A stretch of DNA of 64,000 bases from Psammoneis japonica (GCA_008632985.1 QPGO01000038.1:273939-337938), one strand, 5' to 3'; positions 14,071 to 64,000 are shown, counted from the stretch's first letter. A program made the numbers and translations. The notes: generated by a model not told the origin, from the sequence alone.

Positions 14071-14511
14071 ATGACAAGATGGCTTGATCATTGTTTTTGT
14101 TGCATCAGTCTGTTCTCAAGCACCGCTCACTCCGGCGCACAGAACACATGCCGCCACCGCCGCAAAGCCCTGGAAAACACTGATCGCCACAACATCTGTC
14201 GTCTCTGAATTTTTTTGCTGCCACCACATCACGTGGGCCTCTGAAATTTGTTCTAGTTGGTGATGCAGAAACAAAGACCTGCAGATTGTTCATTTTTCGT
14301 TTCTCTTGCTTCCTTCCTTTGCTCCACAGGTGGAGAGGATGCGACTGACGGACGATGGTCGAATCAATCGAGCGAGCGAGCGGCGACCGGAGCGATAGGC
14401 GAGGGATTCATTCCGCGGACCAACTTATTCTCGCCGCCGACGGACGAGATTGAAGATGGCGGGCAAAGATCTTGTCAAGCATTATTCAAGCTGAACTGTC
14501 GCTCGTTAGCC

Positions 14512-17789: not shown

Positions 17790-18190
17790 CATCTTGCTCT
17801 GCTCACCACACAGCAAACACATGCTCTTAGAGCCGGGGCGTGTTTTACAGACTTTGAACTGAGCTGCAACATTGACAGCTCATGATCTGTGGCACTCATC
17901 CAAGATGCCACTCAACCTTTGAGATTGAAGCAAGCAGCAAGATGTGGCAACTGCTGATGAGCTCAAAAGGAAAGAAGCAAGTGGAGTTTGGAGATCTCAG
18001 CTCTCCTGAGTGGTGTGGGGTTGAACCAACCAAAGTGCTTCTCTGCAGTGCCCCCCTCTGCAAAGCTGAGAAAGACACAAAGAGAGTCCATCAATGTCAG
18101 AATTTTTTGCCTGAGAAAGTGTGCAACAAGCCCCTGGGGAACAAGCAGCACCTTGTTGCACTTTGCAGCATTTGCCACAATGCAGTGACA
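17790..18190 (+). pseudogene. Hypermutated partial paralog of the downstream FG-GAP/ASPIC gene
   Basis: 'MICGTHPRCHSTFEIEASSKMWQLLMSSKG..FGDLSSPEW..HQCQNFLPEKVC..HLVALCSI' aligns with 'VICGTRPGRHGIFELEASKTWRPLKNSKG..FGDLNSPEY..HRCKSFLPKNVC..HHVALCSI' at ~20680-21015. Confidence 0.85.
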
Positions 18191-28498: not shown

Positions 28499-28631
28499 TT
28501 TGGATATCTCGGTGATTTTAACTTGAATGGATTCTAAAGAAAAAATTGTGAGACAAGGTGTGAACTTTGCACAGCTGCAATTTGCGGGTTGCAGATAGTG
28601 CATGATTCATTCTCCAGCTTGCAAGCTCGTG

Positions 28632-29006
28632 TGCATGCTTAGCTGCTGCACATTCTAGTACAGGCTTACCGAGTCATGCATTTTCCCTCGATACACGATG
28701 CGCAGACCAGCATGTACGGGCGTCAATCATGAAAGCGAGCTACTACAGGCTACATGCTCCTGTGCATGCTTGGCTGCTGCACATTCTCTACTAGTATAGG
28801 CCTACGGAGTCATGTATTTTCGCTCGACCCGGCATGTACGGGCGTCAATCATGAAAGCGAGCTACTACAGTTTACATGCTCCTGTGCATGCTTGGCTGCT
28901 GCACATTCTCTCTAGTACTCCGTATATGCCTACGGAGTCATGCCTTTTCGCTCGATTCATGATGCGCAGACCAGCATGTACGGGCGTCAGTCATGCAAGA
29001 AAGCTA
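28632..29006. repeat. Tandem repeat, ~3 units of ~120-130 bp
   Basis: GTGCATGCTT(A/G)GCTGCTGCACATTC...GAGTCATG...GCATGTACGGGCGTCA recurs three times. Confidence 0.9.
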
Positions 29007-38389: not shown

Positions 38390-39130
38390 ATTTTGTGATG
38401 CTGAATGGCACTGAACTCTCATGCCAAGAGTTCCGTGATGTGCTCTTCTTGCGGTGGTGTGGCGGTGCTCCACAGGACCTCCGGGAGCACTGTGGTGGGT
38501 GTGGGCGCAAGTTCTCCATGAGCCACGCCCTTCAGTGCAAGAAGGGTGGCCCGGTCATCTCATGACATGATGAAGTGTGTGACAACCCAGTGACCCAATT
38601 GGCAAGGCTCACAAACCTTCCTGCACACACAACGAACCTCTCATCAAACCCACTGGGTCCCATCTTGGGAAGCCCAAACACCTCCAACAGAGTTCCCCAG
38701 GCAACACCAACTCCAACAAGTCCAAGGACAGCAATCATGGAGATCTTCTCGCATTGAGATTCTGGGATGAAAGGACAGACATGGTGATGGACATCAGAGC
38801 CCCTGACATGGATGCAAAGTCACACCTGTCCAAACACCACCAGAAGAAGTCCCCCAGAAAACCACGAACGTGAGAAAAAGCACAAGTGCACCTCAAGCCC
38901 TGTCTTGAACAATGCCATCATTTCACTCCATTTGTTGTGTTGTGTGATGGGCTGCTTGTTGGCAAAAAAGCCAAGGTGATGCTCCCCGCAAGATTGTGTC
39001 AAAACTGTCTGCTGACAAGTGGCAAAAGCCATGCTTGGAAGCATGTGGCAGCATCAATGTGAGAATGAGCATCACCACAGTTGGGGCAACCCATTGTTGC
39101 CTCAGGGGATCATGAATTCCCACATCCCAG
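38390..39130 (+). mobile_element. 3' fragment of a non-LTR retrotransposon with restriction-like endonuclease (CRE-like), hypermutated
   Basis: 'ELSCQEFRDVLFLR..CGGCGRKFSMSHALQCKKGG..HDEVCD', 'GDLL', 'DAKSHLSK', 'EREKKHKC', 'CHHFTPFVV', 'KWQKPC', 'RMSITTVGATHCCLRGS'. Confidence 0.85.
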
Positions 39131-39929
39131 ATCAGCTCCAGACATCCCCAGCAGGAGAATGGCACATTTCTGTTCCTTTGCAAACATCAAAGAAGGGCTG
39201 TTCTTTGGACGGACTGCGCTCATTTAGACAGAATGCTGACCTGCCATCTGCAGAGACTGCCAATGTGCTCCTGACAAGACAACGACAGCTCTTCCCAAAT
39301 CCCAACACACCAACTGTGGTGCCACCACAATCCACTCAAATTTCACACACAGATGGCAAAACTTGTGCATGAAAACTGCCCCTTTTGCTTGCATGATTGC
39401 ACCAACTGCGTGATGCCCACCACTTTTCAAATGAAAAAAGAGCGGCAAAATGTGAATCACAGGAAATTGCACATGTGCAATGTGCGCACAAAAATCATTC
39501 AGAGATGCTTCCACCACACTGTGAAAGAGAAACAATGACAACACAAGTTGACGAGGATGATCTTTCATTCCAACAAAACATTCAAGTTGATTTTTGGACA
39601 GGCACAATGGGTCAAGTCAAAGATTTTCTTTGCAAGATCTGTCTTCAAGGCTCGCAAAGTGCACAGTGCCTGTGGGCAGATGTGGACAGCACCACATCCC
39701 TCTGTCATGCACGCCCCTTGCTTGCATTGTTTCTTGCCTTCAATTCACAGCAAAATCAAGAGCAACCAAAGTCTGGTGGCCACATGGTCATTCTAATTGA
39801 GCTCTCCAAGCTCTTTCTCAGACAACTGGGCAAATGAAAGAGGCTGTGAAATGCAGCTTTTTTGCCCCCCACAAATGTTTTGCATCAGTGGAGTGCATCA
39901 CTGTGAGCCGACACTTCAGCTTGATTGAA

Positions 39930-40760
39930 TTGCCACATGAAGTGCGCTTGCTTGTTTGAGTGCATGCTCCTCATTGTGCAAGAATCTCATTTGTTTGCCT
40001 CCAGAAATTGGCCAATTGCAGCAACTTCATCTGCTGAAAGTTCTTTGTTGCACAAGTCTTGAGCAACTTCCTCTGTGGAGATTGGGCAGTTGCAAAGAAC
40101 TGGCACGCTTGAATTTGGAAGGTTGCGCATCCCTTGCACAGCTGGCAAGAGAGAAATGGGACATCTCCGTGGGTTGGTTTTGCTCAATCTGCCATCATTA
40201 TTTGGGATTGATTTGTTGTCTTGCCATTGAAATTATGGTCATTTGACCAACTTGCAAAAATTGTTCTTGAGTGGTGTGCATCTGGAAGAGTTGCCAAGTG
40301 CTGTTGGAAATCTGGCAAATCTTGTGTCTTTGTGTCCAAGCAGATGCTCTCCAGCATTGCAGAGCTGCCAATGGAAATTCAGGCATTGATGAATTTGCAA
40401 ATGCTGTTTCTTTGACAAATGCACTCAACTGACAAGAGATCCCAGAAGTCATGCTGCAGGCACTGGCAAACTTGAGAGTGCTTGCTTTGCAGCAATGCAG
40501 GAGATCCAGTGACAACACTGTAGGAAATTGGAGAGGCTTTGCATTGGTTGTGTCAAGGGTGGCTGCTCCATTCAATGCCATGCAACCTGAAATGAATTTC
40601 TGAGTGCTTGGCATGGAGCAGTGCCAGATGCTGTCTGCTCCACAAAGATGACATGTCGTTTGGTTTGTGGCCCAACATTTTGGCAAACTCAAGCAATGTT
40701 CCAACTGTGTTGTTCTTGTTGTTCTTGTCATTCTTGACAAACAACCCAGAGACATGGTGG
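39930..40760 (+). pseudogene. Leucine-rich-repeat gene remnant, hypermutated
   Basis: 'LICLPPEIGQLQQLHLLKVLCCTSLEQLP...LARLNLEGCASLAQL', 'IAELPMEIQALMNLQML'. Confidence 0.8.
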
Positions 40761-41892
40761 TGGGGTGCCACTGAGGAACACACAAGAGCAGAGATGAGTG
40801 ATCTCACACACAGCATGCGTGAACAATGCCACCGATGACTTGGGAAGCAACACAAATAAAAGCTCTTTTAATGCCAGCACCAGCAGTTTGCAGCTTCGAC
40901 AGCTCACTCCAGGGAGAGTGAAACTTCTGCAGTGCTTGCTTTTCGTTTTATGGCATTCCCTGCAGTTCAAAAACTGATGATGTTGTTTTGCATCGATTCC
41001 GAACAGCCGTGCTCATTGGAATGTCGCTCTCGGAGGAGCTCGAATCGCCCCAGTCGTCTTCATGTGATGGTGCACATGTCCAAAAACAATTCCTAGAAAG
41101 TCGAGAATCGGTGGGCCTGACCCTCCAATAAAAAAGGTCTGCAAAGAAAGAAATCAACGAGGCAATGAGATTCCGAAAATACGACAGGGCTCCAACGAAC
41201 GCAGTGTTGCGCCTTTGCTCTACAATCCAAAGTCACCAATTCACACTCACCTGCGCAAGAAAGGCCCACGGCAGTAACTCTGCTTTTAGTGTGAACATAT
41301 CGAACATGTTGATTTCCATTCCTTCAAAAAAGTCGGCTCTAGACATAATAAAGGTACTGCGTCAGGTTGTGTCCAAAAAAGACTGAACTCATACCGAGAC
41401 AGCCGTATCCGACCAACATGTCATATACGGTCGGTTGTGATGAAGTCGCTCCAAGGTACTCATGTACGTCCAGACAAAGTGATCTACTATAGAGAAGATT
41501 TTGTAAAAATAGTGTTGGGTTGAGGTTACCAAGAGTTGGTTCCACAGGGAAAGAGAGCATCTCCACACTCTTATCGGTAATGTAAGGCTACAAAGTCTTA
41601 GCACAAAGTAAGCAACTCTTTCATCGCCCATTCACATAGCTAGATGCCTTGGTTGTTGTCCCGTGAAGGTGAAACTACCCCAACGGTGTTGCCTTGGAGC
41701 TTGCCAGTGAAGCATTGCGATTGCAATCGCGAAAGATTAGAGATGCGAGCCTCCCCACAAACCCCGTTTGGGAATTTATACCATAGACATAAAAAAAGTG
41801 AAGGAAACTTCCGTTTTGAGCCAACTCGTTGATATCGCCACAAATCGAATTGGGTTTCGCCACGAGAAACTCAGAGAAGCAACGGACGAACA

Positions 41893-43099: not shown

Positions 43100-46000
43100 G
43101 CTTTTCGTCTGTCCTGCATCGCATGCGATGGATCAACACCCGCGATTTCACAATGGCGGCGGCGGGTGAAGAAGTGGTGTGCAACTTACCTCTTCTCGCT
43201 AACCATCAGAGGCATTGGCCTAGACGACTTCGCTTGCATGCTTGCCTGTCGTGCTCACCCCGAAGCATGCACCGTGTTTTGAAAATCTCTCGTTTCACAA
43301 GCGCCATCTTCAACCTTTCCTGTGTGTGGCTTTGTGCGCTGCGAACGATTACAATGACAAGATGAGAGGGACTGAAGTTATCGATTGTGTGCTTTGGTGG
43401 CGTAGATGGAGAGAGGTTAGGGAATTTTTTGTTGGTGTGACTGGGGAGCACTCTGTGTGCCCACAGCACTGTGTCATGTGTGGGGAGTTGGGACGAATGA
43501 AGCCATTCGGAGTGGGAACGAGAGGAATGGTGGAAAAGGTGAAAAGGTTCAGCAGACACAGGAAAGAAATGCATGGTGATGCTGCCGTGTCTGTTCACTC
43601 TGCATGACATTTCCAACAACACATCTGTCGAGGCAGGTGTGTCGTCATGTTCTCCTCGTTTGCATTTTGGGTGCCGGAACGTTGCTGTTGTGCCTGAAAA
43701 AAAAATCGACTAGATCTGCCGACTTGTGACATGTGCCTCACCCAGACTACGAGAAAATTGGCACTCTATGAGTGACAACTTTGTGCATCCCAGTTGGAGC
43801 AACTTGCTGGGGAAACAACAATGACGCAGAGTTGTGGTGGATCACTTGTTGTTGCTGCTTGCTCTGTGCATCATTCAACAACAAGAAGACATTGTAAGGT
43901 GTTGCCGATCATGGTGGAGAAATGTAATTTCGAGTTCCAACTGTGACTTTCAGAGGCCACTGGTGGCACTGGCAAGACATGAAGGCTTGACATGAAGGCT
44001 TGCTCGGTCCAGAGCCAGGAGAGTGAACTCCTTTTGGCGATGGACAGTTGGAGACATGCGTGATGGATGTCCTCTGTTTGCAAGAGTTGCAATTTTGTGG
44101 ACAGACATTTCTTTGGCATTGTCTGCAGCCTCTCGCTTGCCAGGGTTAAAGGCCTCTCCCACCACACGCATTGGCTTTGTCGAGGCACAGAGGGCGATGG
44201 TCTGAAGCTTTGCGCCTCTGCAGTGAGTGTTGCAGCATGTGCGTTGAGCAACCGACCACAATGTTTCACGAGGAGCACATGGAAGACAAGTGCACATGAC
44301 AAGTGGATGCTCTTTGTGTTTCAACGCAGTGGACTTTTTGAGCCTTGGTGCAAAACAGAAACAGGAGGGGGGGTGTCTTTCTCCACGCAAACAATGCTTG
44401 AGATTGAGCAACATGCCAAACTTCAATGGAAAAGTTGCATTCAACTTGGTGTGGTGAGTTTGGGGAGCAACAAGTTTTTGCAACCACGACAGAAATGGCA
44501 GGTTTTGGGATGAAGAACTTCTTCAAACTGCACGCAGGTGCAACTCTTGACCATGGCACACGGTGGGTGCATGGCCTTCCCATCGCACAAGTTCGTGGAT
44601 GATCCTGAGTCAATTGCAGTGGTGTCAAAGACTCAACAGGGGCTTGATGAGATGATGGTGAGCAAGACTGGTGATGAGGAAGACTGCTTTCATCTGCAGT
44701 TGTGTGCATCTGACAATGTGTGTTCTTCTGAATGCACTTTGTTCTCTTCCTGTGACACTCTGATGTTTGCAATTCATGCACCCAAGGGGTTGCAGCTTCT
44801 CAAAACCAACCATTTCGGCAAGTGGCCCCAACATGGTGGATTGAGCATCAGTGAAGCCACACTGATGAATTCCAACTCACATCCGCTTGTTGTTCCATTT
44901 TCACAGTCATTGTCATTGCTGTCCTTTTTGCACTGCATGTGTGTCCTGAACTCTTGGATCCAAGTGTGAGTTGGCCATTGCTCAAGCCAAGCATTTGCAG
45001 TGCGCAACCCCACCACAATGGATTGTCAAAATTGTGCACGCATCAATCAGTCGAGTGGCTCACATCACTCTTCGTTGAATCCTCCTTTGCCATGGGAAAG
45101 TTGATCGTGTGCTGACCGGTGGTTTGCCATGGGGTGCAACAAAGCACAAGGGCAGAGAACTGGCATGTCCATCACCACATGGTGCTTGCAGCACAGGGGC
45201 GTGATTCTGAGGCTTTGTCATGCAAACACAGGTGATCGGAGCAATGTTGTGTTTTGCAATGTGAAGGAACCTCCTTGTGCTTTTCATTGTCCCTTGGATT
45301 CAACTTTCTTTCTCCGGTTGGCACGTTGGTCATTTTGCCGGGCATTCAATTTCTGCTGGCATTTTTTCTTGAGAGTCTCAAGTTGCTTCTTGAAGGCCTT
45401 GAACTTGGGATGCGCACATGGACTTCGACAATGCGCTCCCGTTCTGTCACTCACATCCATTGGACCACTGTGAAGCATCAAAGCAGGTGCATTCGATGGA
45501 CCAGCAAATGCTGCTGGCACAGGATGGCACTGGGTTTGTTGCTGGTTTGAATTGCAGATGCTGTCGAAGGGGGTGTTGATGTGCGTGTTTGCAGGGACCA
45601 ACCCAAGCACTTTCCATCTTGCCAGCCTTTCCCTTTTGTGCGTGTCGTTTTGATGCTTCAATGCTCGTTTCTTCTTGTTCTCTTGGGTCTGGGCCAACAT
45701 GGCAGATGAACAGGCTTTCTTTGGGTTGACTCTGTTGCCATTCTTGGTCACTCTTTTTTTTCTTTGAGCACGTTCAAGTTGGCCGCGATGGCAGCAGCAG
45801 CGGGGCAGATGGCGCATGATTGACAGCTTCTGCTGGAATGACCAGAGGTTTGTCTGAAGGACTCTTGATGTTGGATGGGGTGTCTCTTGGTTCTTCATTG
45901 GCATTTGTGGTCAAAGGAGGAACCAATCCCATGCGATCAATGACTTTTGTCAGAAGAACAACCGGTTGCAGGAAGGAAAAGAAGAGGGAGCCGGCGTCAC

Positions 46001-47450
46001 ATGATCTGACCTGACGTTGCTTGTTTCATCACCGCCTGGATCTGCAGACACGGTTGATGGTGGAATGGATGGACTTTGATCAATTGCTTGTGATGCAGCC
46101 ACTTCAGGTGCATCTGAAGTGGTTGCCAGAGTGTTGCTTGATTCATCTCCCGCCTGAGCAGCGTTTGTGGTCAAAGGAGAGGCATTGATGGAAGGCAAGC
46201 ATGATTTTCTTCTGGTGCCACAATTGGCATCTTCGCAAGGACCAACCCAAGCACTTTCCATCTCACCAGCATTTCCCTCTTGCATGTCTTGGATCAATGC
46301 TTCGTCGCTCGTTTTGTTTTGTTCTCTTTGATCCAGGCAAGCAACATGGATGAACATGCTTTCTTTGGGTTGAGTCTGCCTCCATTCGGGGTCACTTTGG
46401 TTTTCATTTTCTTTGAATGCTTCTGAGTGGCCCCAGTTGGCCCCGGCAACGAGAGCTGCACCAATGGATCATTGTCCAATGGGAAGGCAGCTGTTTTGTC
46501 ACCGTTCTGAGCTTCTGGCACCGCCTCGGGCTTGGCGTGAAGGTGTCGTGACAGGCTGCGTGCCGTCCAGGAAGTCTTGCATTGGAAAGTCAATCTCAAT
46601 GCAATGACAACCGAGAGAGTGCACAGCTTGGCATCATTCTCAAACACGACATTCACTTGGATGTCACCACTTTTTGTGAGGAGGCTTTTGAAAAATGTGG
46701 TCACGGTGGACTGGATCATGCAGACGTGCTTGGTTTTCAAAAACTTCTTGATTGTGAGCTCTGCGCCATCGACACGCGGGACCGATCAACATGGCGCATG
46801 GCTCGCAGTGCTGGTGATGACAGTGCTGTTGATTTCAGTGTCCAACTTGACAAACTTGTTGGCCACGATGTGGAAGTTCTCAAGGGCTTGAGCGAATGAG
46901 TCGTTCGTGAGCATCGAAAGCCTGACAACATGCTCTTTGCGGATTTTGGTGGCAAGGCGGCAGAGTTTCGAAATGCTCGATTTGTGCCATGCCTCTTGCG
47001 ACAAGAAGCACATGTGGTTGACTTCGTCAATCACAACCTGCGACAAGGGACGGGCTTGAATCGTGCCTGCTCTGGCGACATTGGAAAGCATGGAGTTTCG
47101 CTTCAACGCAACAAAAACGGAAAACATGGCCTTGACGGCACGCTTGCCAATCAAAGCGATCAAAGTCACGACATCCACAATGGCGGTGACAGAGAGAGCG
47201 ATGAGTGCGAGCGGGGAGACGTTCATGGTTGCTTTTGTGGGAAGGTGAATGGTCTGTGTTGTATGCCTCTCCGAGTTGGAAAAGTGACAGCGTCGTGTTC
47301 GATGTTCTCGATCTTCGCGTGGCAACGGCTCTCAGCATGGTTCTACGCAGCAGCACGCAGCGGCCAGAAACGAGGGTGAAACTTGTTTCAATCTTCGGCG
47401 AAAACTCACGATCGATTTCAAAATGCCGTGACGCTTGGTTTTGTCACCAT
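43100..47450 (-). mobile_element. TpA-depleted degenerate element or gene of unknown class, with two HMG-box-like repeats
   Basis: TA nearly absent. A direct repeat 45601-45755 / 46245-46400 encodes 'NPKKACSS..LA...ENK.KRA.KH...KRE.L.RWKVLG' on the - strand. Confidence 0.45.
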
Positions 47451-49754: not shown

Positions 49755-50802
49755 ATGGCCGCAGCACCGTCAAGCGGACCTTTCAGTCTACAACAAACAC
49801 AAGGCTTACTATCACGCATTACACAAGAAGAAAACGTACAGCTGCTAAACGCAAAAGACTTGTCGCAGAAAGAAGAGAAACGCCGCAGCAGTATGACGGA
49901 CTTGTTGTCGCTCGACGTAGAAACTCCGCCTCGCGCAACAACACTGGATCCCAAAATTCTGGAAGCATTCGAAAGACTGGACAAGTGGAAGAACTGTCCC
50001 AATGCCCCTGAACGACTCGTATACAAGCACAATCGATCACGTGCAGCTTCAACGGGATTTCCAACCATACTTCAATCCGGCCTCAAGCTCGGGCTGACAG
50101 AACACGAGGTGGCTGCGGTTTTCGGATGGACGACGGGCGACTACAAAATCGTTAATCCTATTGCGTAAGTGGTTTTTTGTTTTTATATTACCATTGTCGC
50201 TGACATAACTGGTATTCCTCAGCTTGCCTGACTCGAAACTGTTTATGCACAGGCGCGGAGAAAGCCGTGTTGAGTTTGAAGACTACCCCTTTCTACCCAA
50301 TTCAATGGCCAAGGTCACGTGCCAATTGAGTCGTAAGGATGTAATGCCATATGTGGATGTGTTGAGCTCGGCGCTGCATAAACTGCCAGCCATGAAGGCA
50401 ACACGACAGATTTTATGGCGTGGGCACAGAAGACCGTTAGGACAGACTACCGTCGGCACTACGTTGGTTTTGAAGGGATTCAGCAGCGTATCGCGAGACC
50501 GAGACAATGCCTTGGGCTTTGCCGAGAAGGCAAACGAAGGGCGATCCAACAAACGAGCTCTTTTGGCAGTTGTGGAGCATGCAAGTAGCCGATGCCTCGC
50601 CAAGCTTAGCGCAAGAAAGAATGAGGTGGAAGTACTCTTTCCACGGGACACAACCTTTGAAGTCATTGAAGCGCCACAGGACAGAATTGAACAAGATCGA
50701 TTGGCCGTCCAAGAAGCTACGGAACGTCTCCGGAAAGTCATGCCAGATGCGGAGATTGAGCTCATCTATCTCAGAGAAGTAACGAATGACGACTGGTCCT
50801 AA
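49755..50802 (+). CDS. NAD:arginine ADP-ribosyltransferase (ARTC/R-S-E class), two exons
   Basis: WTTGDY..VN helix, LSSALHKLP, LWRG (R), GFSSVS (S), NEVEVLF (ExE); in-frame GT-AG intron 50165-50252. The start may extend upstream. Confidence 0.85.
50165..50252 (+). other. Spliceosomal intron in the ART gene
   Basis: GTAAGT...CTGAC...GCACAG; splicing joins NPIA|RGES in frame. Confidence 0.8.
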
Positions 50803-52695
50803 TACTTGCGCTTGCGCACCTCATGAGAGATGCAAGAGGGAAGGCTGAAGGACGAAATGCAGGAGTTGTTGTAGCACCGCATTGAGCTCCATGAGATTGC
50901 GCTACCGCTATTCGCTCCGAGATGCACGCTGTTTTGAAATTGAATTCTTCTTTTATCTAAGATGAATGACGCCGTCGCCGTCGAATATATTTGCCTCACC
51001 TCATACCGGAACCGAAGCCCCTACACGGTAGCTGAGATAGCTAGTAAACTCCGAGTTATACTCTCTGCCAACGACAGCTGTGGTCAGTCGTATCGAGTTG
51101 CTGCTTGACTGGAGAGTCTTCTGGTTTCTTGGCACTTGCCTATGAGAAAAAATGCATGTCACGTCTAACATGAATTTCAGTGCCGAATCTTTTGGCTGGG
51201 TCTTTTGAAGACTACTGGCTACCAGGACATTGGTAACACGTGTTCTTGCTATCGGATAATAGCCGTCTATGGAAAACTTGCCTCCTAACGAATGACGACT
51301 GGTCCTTACTATTGCACTTACGCACCTTCATCCTCGAGGAGAAGCGCGAGAGAAGGCTAAGGACGAAGTGCAGCCAGTTGTGGTAGCACCGCAGTTAGCT
51401 CCATGAGATTGTGCTACCACAATTCGTTTCGAGATGCACGGTGTTGTGATGGATGAATGACGCCGTTGCCGTCGAATATATCTTGCCTTGCCGCTTACCG
51501 GATCTTAGAAGCCGCTGCACCCGGGTACGTATACTGGCCACTGAGATAGCCGAGAATCCCGAGATACACTATGTGCCAACGACAACTGTGGTCACTCGTA
51601 TCGAATTGCTGCCAGACTGGAGTGAGTCTTCTGTTGTCAAGGTTGGCACTTGCTAGCGAGGAAGAATGCATGTCACAATGCAACTACCATATCTTCCAGG
51701 ACTTTGGCATAACTTGTTCTTGGTATCGAATGATACCCGTCTATCGAAAAAATGACGACTGGTCCCGATAGTTGCGCTTCCGCACCTTCATCCTCATGAG
51801 AGATGCACGAGAGCAGGCTGAAGGACGAAATGCAGGCCGTGATGGTGGTAGCACCTCATTGAGTTCCATGCGATTATGCTACCGCTATTCGTTTCAAGAT
51901 GCACGGTGTTGTGATCTTGAATCCTTTTTTCTAGATGAATGACGCCGTCGCCGCCTAATAGTTTTGCCTTGCCGCATCCCGGAACTTAGAAGCCGCTGCA
52001 CCGGTACGTATACTGGCCGCTGAGATAGCCAGAGAATCCCGAGATACACTATGTGCCAACGACAACTGTGGTCACTCGTATCGAATTGTTGCCAGACTGG
52101 AGTGAGTCTTCTGTTGTCAAGGTTGGCACTTGCTAGCGAGGAAGAATGCATGTCACAATGCAACTACCATACCGTATCTTCCAGGACTTTGGCATAACTT
52201 GTTCTTGGTATCGAATGATACCCATCTATCGAAAAAATGACGACTGGTCCCGACAGTTGCGCTTCCGCACCTTCATCCTCATGAGAGATGCACGAGAGCA
52301 GGCTGAAGGACGAAATGCAGGCCGTGATGGTGGTAGCACCTCATTCAGTTCCATGCGATTATGCTACCGCTATTCGTTTCAAGATGCACGGTGTTGTGAT
52401 ATTGAATCCTTTTTTCTAGATGAATGCGCTGTCGCCGTTGAATGCTTTTCCTTGCCGCGTGCCGGAGCCGAAGCCCTGCACCCCGGTACGCACACTGGCA
52501 GCTGAGACAGCCAGCGAATCCCGAGGCATGCTCTGTGCCACGGACACCTGTGGTGAGTCGTATCGAATTGCTTCCCGGCTGGAGTGAGTCTTCTGGTGTC
52601 GAGGTTGGCACTTGCTTGCGAGAAAGGATGCATGTCCCCTCAAACATGAATTCAACTGCCGATTCTTTTGGCTGTTTCTTTGATGACTGCTGGCT
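50781..52695. repeat. Tandem array, four units of ~460-506 bp
   Basis: AATGACGACTGGTCC at 50785, 51291, 51751 and 52236; shared internal blocks (GAGATGCACG, GATGAATGACGCCG, CGTATCGAATTG, TTGGCACTTGC). Confidence 0.95.
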
Positions 52696-53416
52696 AAACG
52701 CGTTCTTGGTATTATAGATGATATCAATCAATCGAGAATCCCCCCCCCCCCCCCCCATAGTTCCCACCTTGCGCTTTTTTCTCGAATGAGCGGATTTATG
52801 ATCATTTATTTGTGTCTCTCGAATGACCAGTCGCAGCATGCATGATTCACGTGAATAATGCAGAGTGAAGTGAGACTGACAAACTGGAGAGTTGCCTCTA
52901 TTTTCCACGCTCGGTATGGTATTTTCTTATTACCACTGTTGCACCATCTGGGCACTTTTGTAAAACATTAAGGCTGTTGTTGGTGTCAGCTCTAGCTCTA
53001 GTGATTAAACTGATCATTGCCATCTTCTCATATTTCGATCTACATCGTTTCTCTCTACTTGTAGAGAGCGAGACAATTCAAACATGTGGGATAAATAGAA
53101 TGTAAGCCGATGCAAGTACTGGTACATTAACATAGATGCCAACGTCAATAAAAACTCGTAGGGGTAGAACGTCTTTGAGTCTGCACTCATGCGCTTTGGC
53201 GCGGGAGTGTAATTTTGAATAATTGGATCTATTATATTCATTCATTAGGATTCAGAAATATTAATCCCGCGGCGGTGACACCTCGCACTGCAAATCCGAA
53301 CATTTGAGGCAACAAATCCGAACTTCGCTCATGCATGCATTGTCTCGCTCGTGCTATCATCACAACCCAAACTTCTCTCGCAGCAACATCATCAGTGTCC
53401 TCAACGTTCCGTCATC

Positions 53417-54164: not shown

Positions 54165-56142
54165 CTAGTCGATGGCGGTAATGTCACGCCCAAAGAGACG
54201 CGACTTGACCCAGTCAATGGCCACCAGAGCGCGATTCCTCATGGACGCTTGTTTCATCAAATACACGCTTCTCCATAGACCAAATCCAACCGTTCCAGTA
54301 GCCTTGACGCGTGTCTTTTCGTCTGGTGTTACTTGAACCTGTGCAAGTGCTGAAAACCCACCCGTATATGCCAAAATGCCCATGTCAAGGAACTGGAACG
54401 GTACCATGTACTCGTCCGTCTGGACGGCAAAGGAAGCAATCGCATCCATTAAGCTATTGGATTTCTCCGGATCTCGTTTGGGTGGTAACATAACACCCTC
54501 CTCACTGTACTCTGTATCAAGGTTGGCCTTTGACAAGACGTGGGCAAGGAACTCTCCTTCTTGAGCAGCGACTTGGGCGGTGCTCGGCAAGCAAGCCATT
54601 TGCGTACAGGCGCAGTCACCCAATGCAAAGATGCGGCCCTTGCCATTCACGGCTCGAAGCCACGGATCTACCGCGAGCTTTCCGCGAGCCTTTTCTTGGG
54701 CTTCAACTTGTCTCCCACCAATAGCCTCAATGATATCTAGTGTAATGGGCAAAGGTCCGATACCGCCGGCCCATACCGCCAAGCCATACGGTATTTTTGA
54801 GCCATCAGCAAGGTCAATGGTATCGGCGGTCACCTCTTTGACAGACTTGTTGATAATAAGTTCAGTCAACCCATCTGGGAACAAACTTTTGAGGGCTGGG
54901 TCCTTGATGTTGGTACCGCGAGTAAGCACATTAATGGCTGTTTCTCGCAAGCTCTCGTCAAAGGGCCTCAGAATTACTGGCGTTGCTTCAATAACCTTGA
55001 TTTGAGCGTCTTTGAGTAAATGGGGATAATACTTTGGACCGTCTTCTTCGATGAAGTCTCGAAGCTCGGCTGCAAATTCAATACCCGTTGGACCAGCACC
55101 AATCACGGCAAAGGTCAACAGCTTGCGACGCTCTTGTTCCGATTGACCTGGAAAATTCGCTCTTTCAAACAAACTGACAATCTTGCGCCGAATGTGCCTT
55201 GCATCATTAATCTGCTTCAAAAAGAGGCAGTGCTCTTCGACACCGGGAATACCAAATGTGTTGGTTTTCGCTCCGACCGCCACCACAAGCCGATCATACT
55301 TGACTTCAATGTCTGTAATCTCGCATTCCTCATCGCATTGAACCCCTTGGCAAGTTACAATTCGAGCCTCGGTATCGATAGAGGATGCGGCTGCCTCCAA
55401 GTAGTTGGCTTGTCGATTGAACTGAGAAAGAGAAGGGCAAAACGAACGTATGAAGTGAGCGCATCAACATTCTGGAAAATGCACCGTTATTCTTCATACG
55501 AATCAACGTACCTCTCGAATCGGTTGAGTAATACTCCGAACGTCCACAGTACCTACGCTAGCACCTGCGAGCATGGGAGTGAACAAAAAGTAGTTCCGTG
55601 GACTGATAACCGTCACGTCGTAGTGATCATTGTCGATCTCGCTCAATAAGGCAGCAGCTCCCCAGCCAGTGCCCAAAATAACCAATTTCTCTTTTGTCTC
55701 CGTGATTGCGCTGTTGACGGCAACTTTCTTAATCAACGGACTTGGAACTAGGTCCCCCAATACCTTGGCTGCCTTTTCCATAAGGAAGAGAGGATATGCA
55801 CGAGGCTTGGTGAGACGTCCTAGCTTTGCTTGGAGCTTCTCGTCCTGTACTTGGCATGCGTAGCTACAGCAATCGCCAGGACTCTTGCTCGGCAAACCTT
55901 GCAATACCCCGTGATCCTGGGCTTTGGCATTGACTATGTCGCGTTGTCCTGCTGCCTCCTCCACAGCTATGCGGGTGGGCTTTTCGCCAATGTAATAGCG
56001 GCACGTCTCTTTGATGCGCTGGCTGGGTGGCGTCGTTCTCCCCAACAAAAGTTCTTGGGCCAATGCCGGTGAATGACGAAGTCTCTCTCACCATGCAAGA
56101 GACTAGTGCAACGAATCCGATAATTCGTGTTGTTAGCTTCAT
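54165..56142 (-). CDS. NDH2: Type II (alternative) NAD(P)H dehydrogenase, probably plastid-targeted; intron 55422-55511, one frameshift in the N-terminal region
   Basis: LVILGTGWGA, ISPRNYFLFTPML, YDRLVVAVGA, FAVIGAGPTGIEFAAEL, IFALGDCA, LPSTAQVAAQEGEFLA, LWRSVYL..Q.S.RNR..V..DW....FGRD; signal ending 'ETSSF'. Confidence 0.93.
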
Positions 56143-57455
56143 TTTTTCTCACTTTGTGTGTTTGTTTTGAGAACAAGCGGTGGAGCGATGAAAAGCCAGA
56201 CAGAGGGTTCGCATTCAAGAGGTTTCTCCGAAACACATTTCGCGCGAGCGAGGAAAGGCCTGCCATTTTCACCGAGTCGGCTCTTTTGCACGGGAGAACA
56301 CGCGAGAGTGGGCGGGCATGGTGATCTTCAAAAGGATCACCCAATTGTCATACTTTGACCACAACAAAAAGCAGAACATTGTTGTCGTCATGTGATTGCA
56401 AAGAGGGACAAGCAAGTCGACTCACTCTGAACTTCAAGTTTTCTTTCTAGACTGCAAAGTTCACAGAAATCCAAGCAGACCGACTTTGTCAGACTGGCGG
56501 GACATTGCTCAAGCTCCTCAGTGGGGTTTGTTTTTCGTTGCTTCTCTGTCAAGTAGTTCCTCGTGAAGACAATGGTGCAAAACGTCAGTCAGAAAGAAAC
56601 TGATGCACAATTGGGCGATTTTGAGCTACGATTTTTCTGTTTCATGCGATCGTCATGGTGTTGATCCCAGTCGAGGAGGCTGACAGTGTGTGTTTGCGGT
56701 CTCTGCGTGTTTCAAAAGACGTGCTTTCACACAAGGCACAGCACAATGGCATTCGAGAGAAACCAGCCAAAAATCGAGAAAGCATGTTGTCGCCCCTGGC
56801 ATGGCTCGTAACTTGGTGGCATTTTGCCATCCCCTTCAAACATGAGAGCAAACAAGCTTCGAAACGCACTGTGCCTCGTCTTGTCCACGGGTGTTCCCTG
56901 GATGCAATGCCCAAGCAGGTGGTTGTCCTTTGATCCAAATGTGACAGTGAAAAAGACAGCCACCTGAGGCAGCCAAAATGACGTGCCGACTGTCGCCATG
57001 TCCACCTCTTGTTTCAAGCCGAGGTTCAGGAGAGCAAAAGTCATCGAGTGTGAAAGGGCAGTCTTGAAAATGAGTGCATGAACCATGAGAATGTGAGCTT
57101 GAAAAAAAGTGTCATGTGGATGAATGGCGCTCTTGTGTAAATCCGCCAGTGCGATGCAGTCCTGATGGACAAGTGGAACAGTCTGAGGATGGACAGAATG
57201 TGTCTGGAGGTGCCGGCGTTCAAAGATTTCACCATCTTGACTGAAGCCAAGGTGTGCAGTGACTGTGTGGGGTGTGCAAGCACCAAGAACATGCGCAGAC
57301 AAAGGATCCCTTTGGGCTTCATTGTCAAAGGGTGTAAAAATGTGTCAGTCAAAAGCTGGCAGTGGCATTTCTGTCAACAGCATGGTCCACCCACGCGGAA
57401 ATGAGCCAGATGACAGCACAAGCTGGGGTGACAACAACCATCTAAAGCAGACACA

Positions 57456-57769
57456 TGTCAACAGCATCCACTGTCAAAGTGCTCATGATCATTGTGAAAG
57501 TCGAAATCTGCAAGAATGCTCATGATCATTGTGAAAGTCGAAATCTGCAAGAAGTGAGAGAGAAGAGAAGAGAGCCCCAAAAGCAACCCAAAAGATCTGA
57601 AGGGACCGAAGGTGTCACTTCAGCACTGAGTTCCACACATTTGATGGCAGATCAGACAAAGAAATGATGAATGACCTGAAAAAGCGATTCACAAGGAGGA
57701 TGTGCTCCCACACGTGACCAACCCATGTCATCAACTCAGAAACCAATGACTCAGAAAGTCAGCTCTCAT
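57456..57769 (-). repeat. Putative 3' LTR of the copia, containing a 37-bp tandem duplication
   Basis: Starts TG just after the PPT and ends ...TGTTGACA. TGCTCATGATCATTGTGAAAGTCGAAATCTGCAAGAA occurs twice (57480-57553). The 5' LTR is outside the window, so the boundary is unconfirmed. Confidence 0.55.
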
Positions 57770-60700
57770 CGCTCTCCCTCTCGAGAAGACGTCGACTGCA
57801 AGACATCAGATCGCCACTGAAAATTTAAAATGAAGTTCGCACCAAAAACACAACCCATCATGCAATGATGCGAAACCACATGCAGAGACACAACAACCCC
57901 AATTGCCATGCCTGATTGCCATTGCTCCATTTCACACATGACAAATGCATTTGAACCCAAACCAACATGCACACAAGTGCAAATGTCAACCGCCTGCCAC
58001 CCCATCAACTTCTTCGGCAAATGCTCAAACTTTTCTTGAACTGGACCCTTTGTGAAGACATCCGCCAACTGTTCCTTGCTGGCAATCTTTTGAATGTGAG
58101 TCAAATGGTCAGGTTGAGCAATGTGAGACTTGAAGAAATGATGCTTCACTGCGACATGCTTGGTCGCCAATGACAAAGCACTGTTGTTGTCCTCAAAAAC
58201 GGCAGAGTGGAACAAAATGTCATCATTCCCATCAACACTCATCAAAGAGGCAACCTCCTTGACAAGTCCTTTCATGGGTGGCAGGACTCTCATTGCCTGA
58301 GACAAGGCAACATGCTCTGCCTTGAGAGTGGACAACAATGCCATTTCGGTCTGCAACTTGGAAGCCCAAATCAAAGGGCTGTCACCAATGGTCAGTGCAT
58401 GACCAGAGTGACTCTTGACACAAACAGGATCTTGAGGATCTTCATGGTTCCAAAGTCTTGCAAAATCCACGTCACAGCAACAATCCAATCTCGAATTGTC
58501 AGACATGGTGAAAATCATGCCACGATCCGAAGTCTTCTGAAGATGATGGACGACATGCTTGACTGCTTCCTCATCATGACTCTTCTTGGGATTGTGGGTG
58601 AATCAAGCACAACCATGCACCACACATTGAATGTCAGGCCTTGTGTTGGAAGCCAAATGAAGCATTGTGCCAATGACACTTGCATGGCTCCACGACTCGA
58701 CCTGCTCCGGTCTGTCAGCATCCGCAGCCAATGGACCAGAGCTGGCTGGAGCAGCCTTGGCATTGCAGCCAACCATGTTGGTGGCCGCAATGATCTTCTG
58801 AACAAGTCCTTTCTGTGACAGATGGACAGCACCAGCCTCGTGGTCCTTTTCAACATTGACTCCAAGAAATCCATTTGCATCATCCTCAATGTAAAGCTTG
58901 CATCCATTTGCCTTGAGCTGATCAACAATTTTGTCAATCTTGGACAAATCCTTGGCAAAGAACAGACAGTTGTCAATGTGGACGAGACAAACAACATGAT
59001 GCTGGAACCAAGTCGTTGCAGCTTGACGCAATCTGCAGAGATTCTTGTTCAATTTCAAGACGTGGTCCCCGTCTGCACCCACTTCAAACAATTTGGGCAG
59101 CTCAACATGCACGTTTTCCCCGATGTCTGCTTGAGCAAATGCAAGAGCACAGTCAACTTGATGAGAAGCTGGACCGTGCAGATTCGACAAACTCATCAAA
59201 AGTCAAACCGTGCTTTGACTGACGACCGGAGCATGGGTCTTGAAGAATTCCATGCCCTCTTGTTGGTGCTGTCCTTGGACACAAAACCGTGCCTTGAACT
59301 TCTTGAGCCATCCATCAGGGTGTCTCTTGACCTTGAATGCCCAAGTGCCGGGCAATGTGTCAGTGTCAGCAGGCACCGAATCGCGCAAAACCGGAGCAAA
59401 CGAATTTCGACGCATCAAATCATTTGTCTCTGAGCACATGGCCTTCTTGAATTCTTCTGCGCAAGGACCTGCCATCGCTTCATGATGTGAAGGAGTGTCA
59501 GGGTCTCCAACCTTCTTGCCAGCAAAAGAGTCCAACAAATGGCTCGACAATGGACAGATGCCGTCCACTCCACATCTCCGTCCACGTCAGACATGAGAGC
59601 ATGTGTCTTCGCAAACTCCGCAGTCCGACAATCAGCACCAAACCACTTGGATGGATTAAAATAAAACCAGCAACCCCTTTGAGCACATGCCCATCACAAC
59701 CATGTTGATCCTTGCCTTCACAGCCATGACGATCTGGCGATCAAACAGTCTGTCCAGAATGCGTCCAGATCAGACTGCGAGCAGCCGGTTCTTTGGGATG
59801 AGGGTCATCGTTCTTGTCAATGGCCAAAGGTGCTTCTGGAGACATGGAACTCGTGAGTCTCCCTCTGGAGAGTGCTCTGCACCAAATGGAGTTAACGGAG
59901 ACTCGATGCCAGAAGGTGAGACATCATCATGTGTGCAATCAGGAGATGGAGGAGAATCTTGCAGAACACTGGGTTGTCTTGGAGTGTCAGACCTCCTGCG
60001 AAGAGAAGACTGACACAAAGAAGAGGTCCCAGCATCAACTCTTGAGTTCCTCTCCCTCTGTTCCACTGGAATCGAGTTCCCAGCCCAACGTTGCCTCCTG
60101 ATTTCTTCTCGCTGTTCGCGTCTTTCATGCAGCTCCGCTTCCGCAAGCCGGTTGTCCGATGACTGCGGTGGCACAGCCAGTGCCATCATCAGTGTCCACT
60201 GTGTGACGTGAAGTGGCAAGAAGATCACGCCAATTCCTTGGTGGCCTTTGCTCATCATCAGAGTGAACTGTCTCAAACCAGTTGTCGCAGACAACATGGA
60301 ATTGAGCGGACATGGAACCTGTCCTGAGATTCCTGATTAAACCAACAGCACTGGCATGCAATGGAGAGAAGCCCACAAACTGACCACGACAACTGCAGGC
60401 CTTCCAAAAAGGTGTCTTCTTCCCATCTTGCAAAGTGGGATCCAACACATGAGTCGGACATCCCCAAATGGGTGAATTTGTGAGTGTCAGAGTTGAAGAA
60501 AGTTTCACTCCCGCAAAGACTTCCTCCGGACACAATCCGTTGAAATCCAGTCATGGGGTCAGATTCCATGATTGAACAGAATGACTTTTGGCCATGGGCC
60601 ACAAGTCCATCTCTGCTGTGTCCGGCCATCAAACTGCAGCATGAAACATCATGGTTCGGGCACATTCAGCAACAGCATGTGTCGCTTGCTCCACAATTGT

Positions 60701-63088
60701 GTTGTGATGATGTGCCCCAACACCGCTGAGCTTCCTGCCCTGTCCAGCAGCCTCCAATTCCTTGACAAACTTGTCACTGACAAAGACTCCGTCATCCAAT
60801 TGGCACTTTTGAACAGCAATGCCTGCAGAAGCAGCCTCCCTCTCAAAGGCCACTTTGCTCTTGACAGTCTCGAAAGCACCTGATGAAACTTGGTGATGCA
60901 CAGAGACCTTGCCCAAAGCAATGTCAACAAAAACAGCACCACCACCACATTTGTCCCTGCCTCCTTCATCTTGCCACAGGATTGGAGTGGACGTCCTCAT
61001 GTTGAAGAGACACGCTGATCAGTGGCTGCCAGCTGTCCAGGATGAAGAATGTTTGCCTTCATGGCTTGATCCTGTTCCGGAACCTTGCCAGTCTTGGTCG
61101 CACCGGTGGAACAACGAGTCATTCCACCGCACTGACATGAAGCACATTTGGGATTTGGCACGGACGTAGAACCAACAATCCTTGCAGCATCTCCAAGGTG
61201 CCCTTGACAAGCCAACCATTTGACATGATCAAACCCAAGATGACCAAGACGAAAATGCCACTGCAATGGTCGCTTCTGCTTCGCAGACAAATTTTGGTTG
61301 AATTTGTTGGCAACACATGCGTGGATTTGCTTCTTCTGTGCAATGGTGGAGAAATTGTTTCTCCCAATCACCACTGGCAGGTCATTCGCCTTGTGATGAG
61401 GCATTGCAATCTTGCCGCCATCCCTCCATGAGAAGAATGCATGATCCTTGGAAGTGTTGATGTCGAGCAGACATCCCACCCCACTTCCTTCTTTGTCGTG
61501 ACCACAGTGCGTTGCACTCAACAATCACATGGGAGAGGAGAGAATGAAGAAACAACTTGTGCAAATGTGTCACTCTCATCCTGTGTCATCGAATGCCATC
61601 CATTCAACAATGCCAGTGCCCTTGACATCAACAGGTCCTCTGACTCTGAGTGAAGTTTTGGAGTCCGTGAACAACTCGAGGGTCCCTGGCACGAAATCAT
61701 CCACATCACAAGTGGAGGCAATGTTCACACCAGAATCGAAGAGCATTTCGAATTGCTTGTCATGGGGAGCCAAGAAAGTCATGGGCAAGTGATCTGTCTG
61801 CTCCTTCAAATCGACGTTCGCGAAGATTCGTGTGAGCGTGCATGAGATCAATTCCGAATTTGAAAATTTGAAATCTCCAGTCGTGTGAGCTGTTGGGACT
61901 CGACAGCCACAAGCACACTGCACTAAACCAGAATTCAAAGGGACAGAATCTGCATCTTGATGTTCCATGAGCTCTTAAATCGAATCGTCACAACAGGAAC
62001 CACAACACGAGAACTCAAAATCAGGCATCTTGTTGAGCAGACGATCAAGTTCTTGAGGTGTCATGAACCGTTTCTTGGAAGACTCAGGCTGCAGGGCTTG
62101 ATGAACCCCAATGAACATCAAAATGACAACCAACAAATGAATGAATCGGTGACAAAAAACTGAACCGAGTGCGCTTTGTTGGGTCTTGTGGAACAATTCT
62201 TGCTTGGATGACATTCCTGGATCGGGCGGCTCCTTGTTGTTGGGTGTCTCCACATCTCTGCAAATGAATCCAGGCATCCACAAGAAAGCCCATGGATGAC
62301 ACCCATAAATTGCAAAACGTGTCATGGCAAAAGCCCACACAGATGTCATGTGCACCGACAAAATGTTGAGGACTTCAGGGTGCATCTTGAGAGGAACTTG
62401 TCCTTGCTCTTGTTTGACATTGGTCTCCCTCTGACGATCAGTTTGGACAAGATTTGGGCCTTTCATGAACAGCAAACTGATGATGAAACTCATCCACTGG
62501 CCCACCAGTTTAACATCGTTCGTGCGAAGTGCAAGCCATGCAGATGCGATTGTTTGTTTGACTCACCACCGGAGCAGACAAATCTTGAGGTTGACCTTGA
62601 TCAGTGCCTTGAATGGAGGGATCCCAATTCACACGACATTCATTGGAATTTGCAGCACGGCCCTCTGACTGGTCTTGAGGCACAGCACTGTTCCCAGCAC
62701 TCGGATTCCGCACCGGATGACAGTTTGGGTTAGGACCCCCCTCTCAAGCAGCATGATTCGATGTCTCGTGAGTGGTCCAGCAAGCACATCTGCCACACCA
62801 ACACTCGGTGACACCGTTGGCCACATGAGCATGAGGCTCATCATGCCTGGGAGGAATCCTGCGAGGATCCCTTGGAGGTCCTCGACCACTGTCATTGTCT
62901 CCATGACCACCTCAACCACGTCCACGGCCTCCTCTGCCACCTCGGCCTCTTCCTTGACCTCAGCCACTGCGTCCACCACGTCCACCACACGGCCGCCTCC
63001 TTGAACAATCGGGTGAGGGCAATCAGGACAAACATGGCCCTTTTCGCCACAATTGCAGCAGGTGCAATCATCTTGACAGGTGAGAAAG

Positions 63089-63539
63089 TGCAGCATGCAT
63101 GCAGACAAAAGGTTGTTTTGTCATGCCCTTTGTGACATTTAAAGGCTGCAACACGTCGCCGTGACACATTGACTCTCACTGGCAGCTGTGTGTTGCACTC
63201 CTCCCCATGTGTCACGCGTCCATGTGGCTCTTTGCCAATGTGCGCTGACACTGCACGGTTTTGGCAGAACAGTGTGGGTGCGCACGAAGGAACACACAGA
63301 ACTGCACATAGTTTAACGCGTTCGACAGTGATCAACGTTGCTGCAGACAACTCCCACTCAGGGTTTCGAACCCCTGGCCTCCTGCCTGATGGTTATGATG
63401 AACCACTCCGCCATGAATTCACAATCACAACGCAGCATGCATGCAGACAAAAGGTCATTTTGTCACGCCCTTTGTGACATTTAAAGGCTGTAACACGTCG
63501 CCGTGACACATTGGCTCTTGTTGGCAGCTGTGCATTGCA
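63089..63539 (-). mobile_element. TRIM (miniature LTR element) inserted in the copia gag
   Basis: 109-bp direct repeats 63089-63197 and 63431-63539 with TG/CG...CA ends; 4-bp TSD AAAG (63085-88, 63540-43); PPT GGGGAGGAG on the - strand (63198-63206). Confidence 0.9.
63350..63420 (-). promoter_or_regulatory. tRNA-derived Pol III A/B-box segment inside the TRIM
   Basis: - strand TGGCGGAGTGG (A box) and GGTTCGAAACCC (B box/T-loop) at tRNA-like spacing; no clean cloverleaf. Confidence 0.6.
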
Positions 63540-64000
63540 AAAGGACGCAGCTCCAGAATCGCCTTGATTCAAAGGCGTCCACTTGTCACGATCAACCAAG
63601 CTTGTGCAAGCCTCTTGTTGGCACGCACAACAAGATCAGTGCACGCGTGCCTCATGGGATCAATGTCGACTTCATTGAAGACAATCAAGAGCTGAATCCT
63701 GAAGGTCTTGACAGCAGATGTCGCAAGTCCTTCACACATGATTGAAGAAGCATCTTCAGGCAACTTGTGACATCCTTCCAGCTTCCTGCAAATCTCCACA
63801 ATCTTTGCAGCACAATGCAGCTCATTCATGACCAGCTTGAAAATCACGGGTCCACACGCAGGACCACAGACACACTTTTTTGGACATCACCATGAAGAGC
63901 AACGCCAATGGAGTTGAGAAAGAACTTGGCGGACCAAAGCAAGTTCTGCTTGTCATGCTGGTCACCATTCAAGAGCAACTCTTGCACGTGGTCTTCAATC

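Follow-up and report, generated by a model that had tools for sequence, protein, structure and literature searches.

We analyzed a 451-bp unit (63089-63539) near one end of a 64,000-nt stretch of DNA catalogued under Psammoneis japonica (GCA_008632985.1, QPGO01000038.1:273939-337938; hereafter, the window). The unit looks like one copy of a very abundant, non-coding, non-autonomous element with long terminal repeats (LTRs), similar to the terminal-repeat retrotransposons in miniature (TRIMs), and it lies in the gag region of a decayed Ty1/copia element. Its two LTRs differ by transitions only, and at three places one LTR has TG where the other has CA. We propose, with a probability of roughly 70%, that these LTRs diverged mainly by hypermutation of TpA to TpG or CpA, a process acting on chromosomal mobile or foreign DNA, along with a slower decay of CpG.

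Differences between the two LTRs

A repeat search of 62000-64000 returned a single family of direct repeats, 63090-63197 and 63432-63539 (108 nt, 91% identity, spaced 342 bp from start to start). Each repeat can be extended by one base (T63089 and C63431) to give LTRs of 109 bp at 63089-63197 and 63431-63539, with ends TG..CA in the first and CG..CA in the second. In the alignment, 11 of the 109 positions differ, and all 11 differences are transitions. Three sites are reciprocal: 63114-5 is TG where 63456-7 is CA, 63191-2 is TG where 63533-4 is CA, and 63177-9 is CAC where 63519-21 is TGT. (The last of these combines a CA/TG doublet with a separate T-to-C change at 63179, a position that is T in 96% of the family described below.) The remaining differences are T/C at 63089 (TG versus CG), T/C at 63124 (CATGCC versus CACGCC, or TG versus CG), C/T at 63149 (GCTGCAAC versus GCTGTAAC, or CA versus TA), and A/G at 63172 (partner 63514), which is not a signature site.

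Steps of the types TA, CG, TG, and CA hold nine of the 11 differences, the exceptions being 63172 and 63179. When 11 random transitions were placed on an LTR copy (200,000 trials), at least three TG/CA doublets arose with a frequency of 0.00089 and at least four adjacent pairs of differences with a frequency of 0.0086. The pattern of LTR differences is real and is not due to chance. A first-pass annotation of this DNA had claimed that the LTRs differ almost only at signature sites and that some of these sites form reciprocal TG/CA pairs. Both claims are borne out, by the nine of 11 positions and by the three aligned doublets, and every string that the annotation quoted is present in its place.

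The 451-bp element

With TRIMs, the 451-bp element shares short LTRs of about 100 bp that run from TG to CA, a small interior without coding capacity, a polypurine tract, a putative duplication of the target site, and a high copy number. On the minus strand, it reads CTTT, then TGCAATG...GCTGCG, then a 233-bp internal region that starts with a spacer and TGGCGGAGTGG and ends in GGGGAGGAG, then TGCAACA...GCTGCA, and again CTTT. The outermost motifs correspond to a putative target-site duplication, AAAG, which is read from the sequence at 63085-63088 on the left and at 63540-63543 on the right; an identical tetramer would be expected at fixed positions by chance in 1 case of 256. The polypurine tract suggests a minus-strand reading of the element, in which the LTR at 63089-63197 (TGCAGC...TTGCA) would be the 3' LTR and its direct repeat at 63431-63539 (CGCAGC...TTGCA) the 5' LTR. 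The polypurine tract itself (63198-63206, read from the minus-strand sequence) abuts the LTR directly.

The internal region (63198-63430, minus strand) contains no open reading frame (ORF). Its candidate primer-binding site (63403-63413, minus strand) begins with TGG and, unlike in a TRIM, stands apart from the LTR and has no tRNA matched to it. On the minus strand, the spacer that separates this candidate site from the LTR (63419-63431) consists of a TTGTGA dimer, and other copies of the family have deletions of 3 and 6 nt in it. Another part of the internal region, the 70 nt at 63317-63386, shows no family variant at ≥5%, and within it lies a hairpin, CAGGGTTTCGAACCCCTG (63359-63376), that resembles a tRNA T-arm. 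We considered that the internal region might be tRNA-derived or a structured RNA, and rejected this: ARAGORN detected no tRNA anywhere in the window, a search of 62000-64000 against Rfam (E up to 1) came back with 0 matches, and the region folds no better than its shuffles (z = 0.27). There was also no Pfam match to the element, and no likeness between the element and the copia element around it was found.

A dispersed family

We aligned the public contigs of runs X1, X2, X3, and X5 to 62600-64000 at ≥80% likeness, and the family consensus was taken solely from contig summary tables (1058 run-X1 contigs over the whole 1401-bp stretch 62600-64000). Depth, which here is the word depth of short contigs and not a copy count, was 30,000-160,000 on the element versus ~35-40 in its unique flanks, or ~1000-4000x, and it was about twice as high on the LTRs as on the internal region. 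It jumps from 34.9 to ~50,000 at the 63089 edge and changes abruptly at 63539 as well. Other copies continue into other sequence: six loose ends past 63539 disagree with one another (agreement 0.46), and different flanks also occur beyond 63089. The element thus belongs to a dispersed family of thousands of copies with terminal direct repeats. Within the 64-kb window, no second copy of the 451-bp element was found, and searches for family copies gave 0 matches in metagenome and genome contigs (two patterns each) and in viral contigs (one pattern).

Both edges of the copy in the window are supported by contigs with unique anchors. A 5339-nt contig anchored in the left flank matches 62600-63113 with 0 differences, and an 826-nt contig anchored in the right flank matches 63510-64000 with 0 differences, covering G63514, TGT63519-21, and CA63533-4. 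One contig from run X5 (a marine sediment metagenome) leads from the internal region through an LTR into unrelated sequence. It is placed on 63089-63198 and 63317-63421 and, at 63149 and 63180-1, carries TA in contrast to the CA or TG/CA of the X1 family.

Within run X1, transitions make up 31 of 34 variable places, ten sites alternate between TG and CA at adjacent bases, and TG and CA are at comparable depth at most of these doublets. For each doublet site, the variant share of the first base minus that of the second base equals the share of TA minus the share of CG. This quantity is zero or positive at all ten sites (+8.7, +1.6, +1.8, +29.4, +9.3, +15.8, +24.6, +3.7, 0.0, and +0.9 points). 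At 63114-5, for example, contigs on the partner site 63456-7 have T at 27% and G at 11% of depth, which requires at least 16% TA, and there is no excess of CG. There are also single-site polymorphisms between TA and TG, at 63234 (40% TA) and 63315-6 (~45% TA, 48% TG). At the other, ordinary CA and TG steps of the element, no TA variant reaches 5%; the TA at doublet sites is therefore residual and not new.

Direction of change in the surrounding copia element

The decayed copia element that surrounds the insertion (57766-64000, minus strand) is nearly free of TA (observed/expected ratio, or o/e, of 0.01-0.10 per kb). On the minus strand it retains an ORF with a gag CCHC knuckle (62632-63120), a gag_pre-integrs (pre-integrase) domain (61000-61524, Pfam, 1e-07), and matches to RVT_2 (reverse transcriptase; 58606-59586, Pfam, 2.8e-17). 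We translated its pol (57769-61524, minus strand) with the two stops read as X, and found 155 homologues at E ≤ 1e-5 (33-49% identity). A column was considered conserved if at least 60% of the aligned homologues (up to 120) share the residue.

In none of the 14 conserved Tyr columns does the copia element have Tyr. Instead, it has His (CAT or CAC) in 10, Cys (TGC) in three, and Phe (TTC) in one. A repeat with 60 homologues gave 12 Tyr columns, with nine changed to His, two to Cys, and one to Phe. Other residues are largely kept (Phe in 19 of 21 columns, Lys in 16 of 19, and His in 9 of 11). Because Tyr codons are always TAY, the change is polarized, from TA to CA and from TA to TG. Arg is kept in just 10 of 21 columns, with stop, His, Cys, or Gln in its place in 9 of the 11 changed ones; a component of change from CG to TG or CA is also real in this element.

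The outcome depends on the codon: TAT became CAT nine times and TGT never, and TAC became TGC three times and CAC once. (Two of the 13 outcomes depart from a simple context rule, so this is a preference and not a law.) We rejected the idea that the excess of His reflects a sense-strand bias or editing of cDNA, as the excess follows the codon context.

Two of the 120 homologues, P0066 and P0110 (both from ENA metagenome assemblies), have 0.2% Tyr, and in most of the conserved Tyr columns their residue is Cys or His. These sequences hint that the process might also operate in further elements or organisms.

TA-poor blocks and other duplicated pairs

Across the whole window, the o/e values are 0.38 for TA, 0.73 for CG, 1.39 for CA, and 1.45 for TG. 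These averages combine two kinds of DNA, as the composition per kb is bimodal. Affected blocks have 0-9 TA per kb (o/e 0.00-0.13), with CG o/e of 0.1-0.6, TG and CA o/e of 1.5-2.1, and unchanged GC content (0.47-0.52). In the remaining DNA, TA o/e is mostly 0.35-0.86 and CG o/e is mostly 0.6-1.4. A sliding count of TA in 400 bp delimits seven TA-poor blocks with sharp edges (1-9348, 9737-10462, 12253-14307, 17891-19058, 38457-40929, 43949-47335, and 56305-64000), which together hold 68 TA in 26,135 bp, versus 1,566 in the 37,865 bp elsewhere. Per kb, the poor blocks relative to normal DNA have lost 39.3 TA and 28.0 CG and have gained 33.7 NTG and 33.7 NCA (67.4 together).

The base before the TA step seems to matter. 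The ratios of trinucleotide frequencies in poor versus normal DNA are 0.02 for ATA, 0.04 for GTA, 0.07 for CTA, and 0.16 for TTA, which suggests a base preference two positions upstream of the edited A. Among the 68 surviving TA steps, 36 are followed by A, 31 are preceded by T, and 17 lie in TTAA (versus 57 of 1,566 in normal DNA).

Host genes such as those for NDH2 and an amine oxidase lie in the normal DNA, separate from the TA-poor blocks. Only the last TA-poor block, which contains the copia element, is proven to be mobile. In the other blocks, 76 ORFs of at least 100 aa gave no Pfam match at E < 0.01 and nine weak matches at E of 0.011-0.048, all of them under the curated cut-offs. ORFs of at least 150 aa inside TA-poor blocks have 0.0-0.6% Tyr. 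On both strands of these blocks there are also overlapping ORFs of 100-200 aa, again with 0.0-0.6% Tyr (e.g., 4610-5265 and 44064-44966). As TAA and TAG stops are lost, edited DNA mimics long ORFs in all six frames and is a trap for gene callers.

Duplicated sequences elsewhere in the window can be compared in the same way as the LTRs. A large inverted duplication (6345-6961 with 8439-9053, and 7384-7613 with 8212-8442), which may be a foldback element or a product of two insertions, has arms that are 91% and 88% identical, and between its arms (6345-9053) there are 15 TG/CA doublets, 20 shared CpGs, and one shared TA. In the duplicated pairs of TA-poor blocks other than the LTRs, the share of transitions is 0.58-0.86. 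Three of these pairs have TG/CA at 6 of 6, 9 of 13, and 15 of 27 doublets, and the others at 4 of 9 to 7 of 16. The exception is the pair 20681-21012/17819-18173, which is mostly normal DNA and has TG/CA at 2 of 15 doublets. Tandem repeats in normal DNA (50780-52696, 33687-35107, and 28612-29007) have a transition share of 0.38-0.53 and no excess of TG/CA.

Probable mutation after insertion

The first-pass annotation inferred that both strands of chromosomal DNA were mutated after the element had inserted, and this is supported by our analysis, with the reservations given below. The LTRs would have been identical at integration, and a TG-versus-CA pair would be the remnant of one ancestral TA that was struck on opposite strands in the two LTRs. 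Given identical LTRs at integration, at least seven later hits at TA-type sites would be required, on both strands and within 109 bp. Outside TTAA, there are six presumptive ancestral TA sites in the LTR, of which three are discordant, two are concordant, and one is changed in a single copy, as fits independent decay. TA was lost in 11 of 12 site-copies versus two changes in ~170 ordinary site-copies. Although these numbers are small, they point to a rate excess at TA sites of the order of 100-fold.

Several observations weigh against our proposal. The evidence about timing comes from just one LTR pair, and the two LTRs have no shared private derived variant that would prove them to be twins. 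The LTRs also differ at the non-signature site 63172/63514, where the family itself varies (22-50%), and gene conversion would predict just this. The distal variants of the LTR at 63089-63197 lack confirmation by any contig with a unique anchor. The family sequences support an ancestral TA directly for only one of the three LTR doublets, 63114-5: at 63177-8, TA minus CG is only +1.6 points, which is weak evidence for a third form, and at 63191-2, no third form is listed at ≥5%. The TTTAAA of the LTR keeps its TA throughout the family, so the process would be context-dependent and not general. (The context preference described above, with TTAA spared, explains this invariance.) As for the element itself, the putative target-site duplication is only 4 bp long, the candidate primer-binding site lies 17 nt from the 5' LTR, and the abundance is read from word depths.

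The alternative that survives best, although we think it unlikely, is that the repeats were unlike at their origin or did not evolve independently, so that the pair would be silent on timing. They could have been altered by ectopic gene conversion or recombination, they could be parts of a tandem 342-bp unit, or the copy could be a mosaic made by the assembly. The LTRs do differ at positions that vary among family copies (63172/63514 is one), and no private variant is shared. Also, public contigs break inside the repeat, which leaves the middle of the element unanchored to unique sequence. However, the matching AAAG duplication points to a single intact insertion, and contigs anchored in unique sequence confirm both outer LTR edges with 0 differences. 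If the assembly had been polished with multi-mapped reads, this would presumably raise the likeness of the LTRs. Finally, even if the differences were drawn from polymorphism in the family, hits on both strands would still be required, in different genomic copies.

A second alternative is that the doublets arose by decay of methylated CpG on opposite strands, with no process directed at TA. In high-copy repeats, deamination of 5-methylcytosine gives TG in some copies and CA in others, which is the same alternation that we see. CG is indeed depleted in the TA-poor blocks (o/e of 0.1-0.6 versus ~1.0), one LTR has CG and the other TG at both 63124 and 63089, and most of the changed Arg columns in copia (9 of 11) have the expected replacements. 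Nevertheless, this explanation seems very unlikely to suffice. Both LTRs retain the three CpGs of CACGTCGCCGTG, for which the family has no variant at ≥5%, and the family has mostly CG at 63225 (100%), 63239 (90%), and 63266 (89%), where the copy in the window has TG, TG, and CA. Because of these invariant CpGs and the CG majority at these three sites, CpG is not the saturated class of site. Under a homogeneous CpG-only model, in which the number of discordant pairs is b^2/8a, 0.04 doublets are expected between the LTRs (0.17 if the edge site is included) versus three observed (Poisson p ~7e-4), and 2.0 are expected between the inverted arms at 6345-9053 versus 15 observed. At no doublet is CG in excess, and the third form there is TA. 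All 14 conserved Tyr codons in copia were lost, 13 of them to His or Cys, although such codons contain no CpG. And in the TA-poor blocks, TA is depleted far below CG. With TA as the ancestral step and most CpGs of the family intact, decay of CpG is a minor component here.

This shortfall of the CpG-only model (0.04-0.17 versus 3) and the residual TA lend support to the earlier claim that a TG-versus-CA pair needs two hits on opposite strands. The first-pass annotation had conceded that its reading would fail if every reciprocal site proved to be CG and TA proved no more variable than the background; we found TA as the third form instead.

A third alternative, that RNA or first-strand cDNA was edited before integration (in the manner of ADAR or APOBEC) and the edits were inherited by new copies, is barely credible: the Tyr changes on the sense strand of copia (10 to His versus 3 to Cys) can be read as a strand bias, but local codon context accounts for the excess of His, such editing would have left the same edits in both LTRs, yet three doublets are discordant, TG and CA are comparable in depth at most family doublets, and the loss of TA extends to blocks without any recognizable retroelement gene. 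The annotation's claim that the process acts on the chromosome, as opposed to strand-biased RNA editing or errors of reverse transcription, is supported, with reservations: the discordant doublets and the analogy to Bigelowiella natans (see below) favor it, and reliance on a single pair and the possibility of gene conversion limit it.

A proposed process

We propose that a TRIM-like element would have landed in the gag region of a copia element older than itself and that its LTRs were since subject to A:T to G:C transitions, on either strand of the palindromic TA step, at perhaps a hundred times the ordinary rate. A slower decay of CpG to TpG or CpA would proceed alongside. As for the agent, our leading candidate among the possible mechanisms, held with a little less than half of our confidence, is an enzyme that deaminates the A in TpA, on either strand of silenced mobile DNA that is double-stranded or transiently single-stranded; it is seen through its products alone. 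Such an enzyme would prefer a purine two bases upstream and would spare TTAA. A modification of thymine at TpA that causes mispairing with G, or a biased repair process, are lesser options.

The transposons of diatoms carry CpG methylation, and the CpG component is most simply explained by methylation-driven decay of the same silenced DNA. Alternatively, the deaminase might also act on the C in CpG.

[quoted passage not shown] This is a tentative reading that we rate at not quite even odds.

The host is placed by one gene. The NDH2 ORF (54168-55463, minus strand, 432 aa) has no match above 74% identity, and all of its named relatives at 55-63% identity are diatoms; a comparison of NDH2 with the ESM Atlas gave a mixture of bacterial and fungal clusters and did not inform on the host. 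We had considered that the TA depletion might reflect a dinoflagellate genome with 5-hydroxymethyluracil, but dropped this reading because NDH2 groups with diatoms. A scan of the window for a spliced-leader motif that tolerated up to 3 mismatches gave 0 matches.

Comparison with known systems

In fungi, RIP changes C to T at CpA, which creates TpA and leaves repeats rich in TpA and poor in GC, and it is linked with the sexual cycle and with duplication. The process that we propose is opposite in direction, as TpA is destroyed and CpA and TpG are made, and the fungal signature is absent from the affected blocks, where TA is nearly absent and GC content is unchanged. The likeness to RIP (also described in PMC2621366) lies in a process akin to genome defense, with dinucleotide-specific transitions confined to mobile or repeated DNA and found on both strands, the sharp aberrant blocks, and the ruined coding sequence. 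Editing of retroelements by APOBEC or ADAR before integration (PMC4866542) is likewise a deaminase-type hypermutation of LTR retroelements. However, those edits are strand-biased and are the same in both LTRs, whereas here the LTRs are discordant and both strands were hit.

The closest match is from mutation-accumulation lines of B. natans. According to the main text of a preprint (Mettrop et al., bioRxiv 10.64898/2026.01.13.699255), two viral regions integrated in the genome account for 231 of the 302 nuclear point mutations in these lines. In that text, 230 of the 231 were A-to-G or T-to-C changes, all at TpA, at ~6e-7 per site per generation or ~1000x the background, and in some lines only (10.64898/2026.01.13.699255). 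It also describes TpA-depleted coding sequences that are enriched for reverse transcriptase and DDE domains, and 124 clusters of 1-kb windows that are poor in TpA and rich in CpA and TpG, and it proposes an ADAT2-like adenine deaminase as the agent (10.64898/2026.01.13.699255). In common with our window, where each LTR has both products, TpA is changed to TpG or CpA on either strand of foreign or mobile DNA, and TpA is depleted over the long term with a gain of CpA and TpG. In B. natans, the process acts on chromosomal DNA; here, the discordant LTRs and the inverted arms point likewise, with the caveats about the single pair and gene conversion.

Judged against the same main text, there are also differences. 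Erasure is near complete here (TA o/e of 0.00-0.13), compared to a Rho of 0.45 in the region of B. natans derived from nucleocytoplasmic large DNA viruses (NCLDV). The targets here are LTR retroelements, compared to integrated viral regions. We see only a long-term trace, while the events in B. natans occurred de novo. The host here looks like a diatom or another ochrophyte (as judged from NDH2) and is probably not B. natans, which is a chlorarachniophyte. Also, CpG is depleted along with TpA here (CG o/e of 0.1-0.6 and the decay of Arg codons), which is not part of the signature described for B. natans and is a further point against our proposal. The main text of the preprint does not contain the words LTR, retrotransposon, flank, context, or CpG, and its supplements may hold data on flanking bases. 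Our literature search for TpA hypermutation or RIP in diatoms found nothing relevant, and among other organisms the signature was found only in the B. natans preprint.

In the window's normal DNA, two of the tandem repeats compared above are associated with ORFs: the repeat at 33687-35107 is inside a 667-aa ORF, and an ADP-ribosyltransferase-like ORF (50209-50799, PF03496, 7.8e-06) borders the array at 50780-52696.

The element is an ordinary kind of retroelement, and the process is of a known kind, from the 2026 preprint alone. What differs here is the host, which is probably a diatom, the LTR retroelements as targets, the near completion of the process, the decay of CpG, and the context rule. 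This would extend the phenomenon to a major algal lineage, and the flanking-base preference and the CpG component would constrain the mechanism. For practical purposes, insertion ages estimated from LTR divergence in such genomes would be far off if TA and CG sites were left unmasked, and Tyr-free "proteins" in metagenomes may be edited transposons. If the tentative RIP-like reading is true, then TpA-directed editing would be more than a peculiarity of one chlorarachniophyte, namely a wider and perhaps ancient system of the protists of the stramenopile, alveolate, and rhizarian (SAR) group, and the enzyme could be searched for through its motif.

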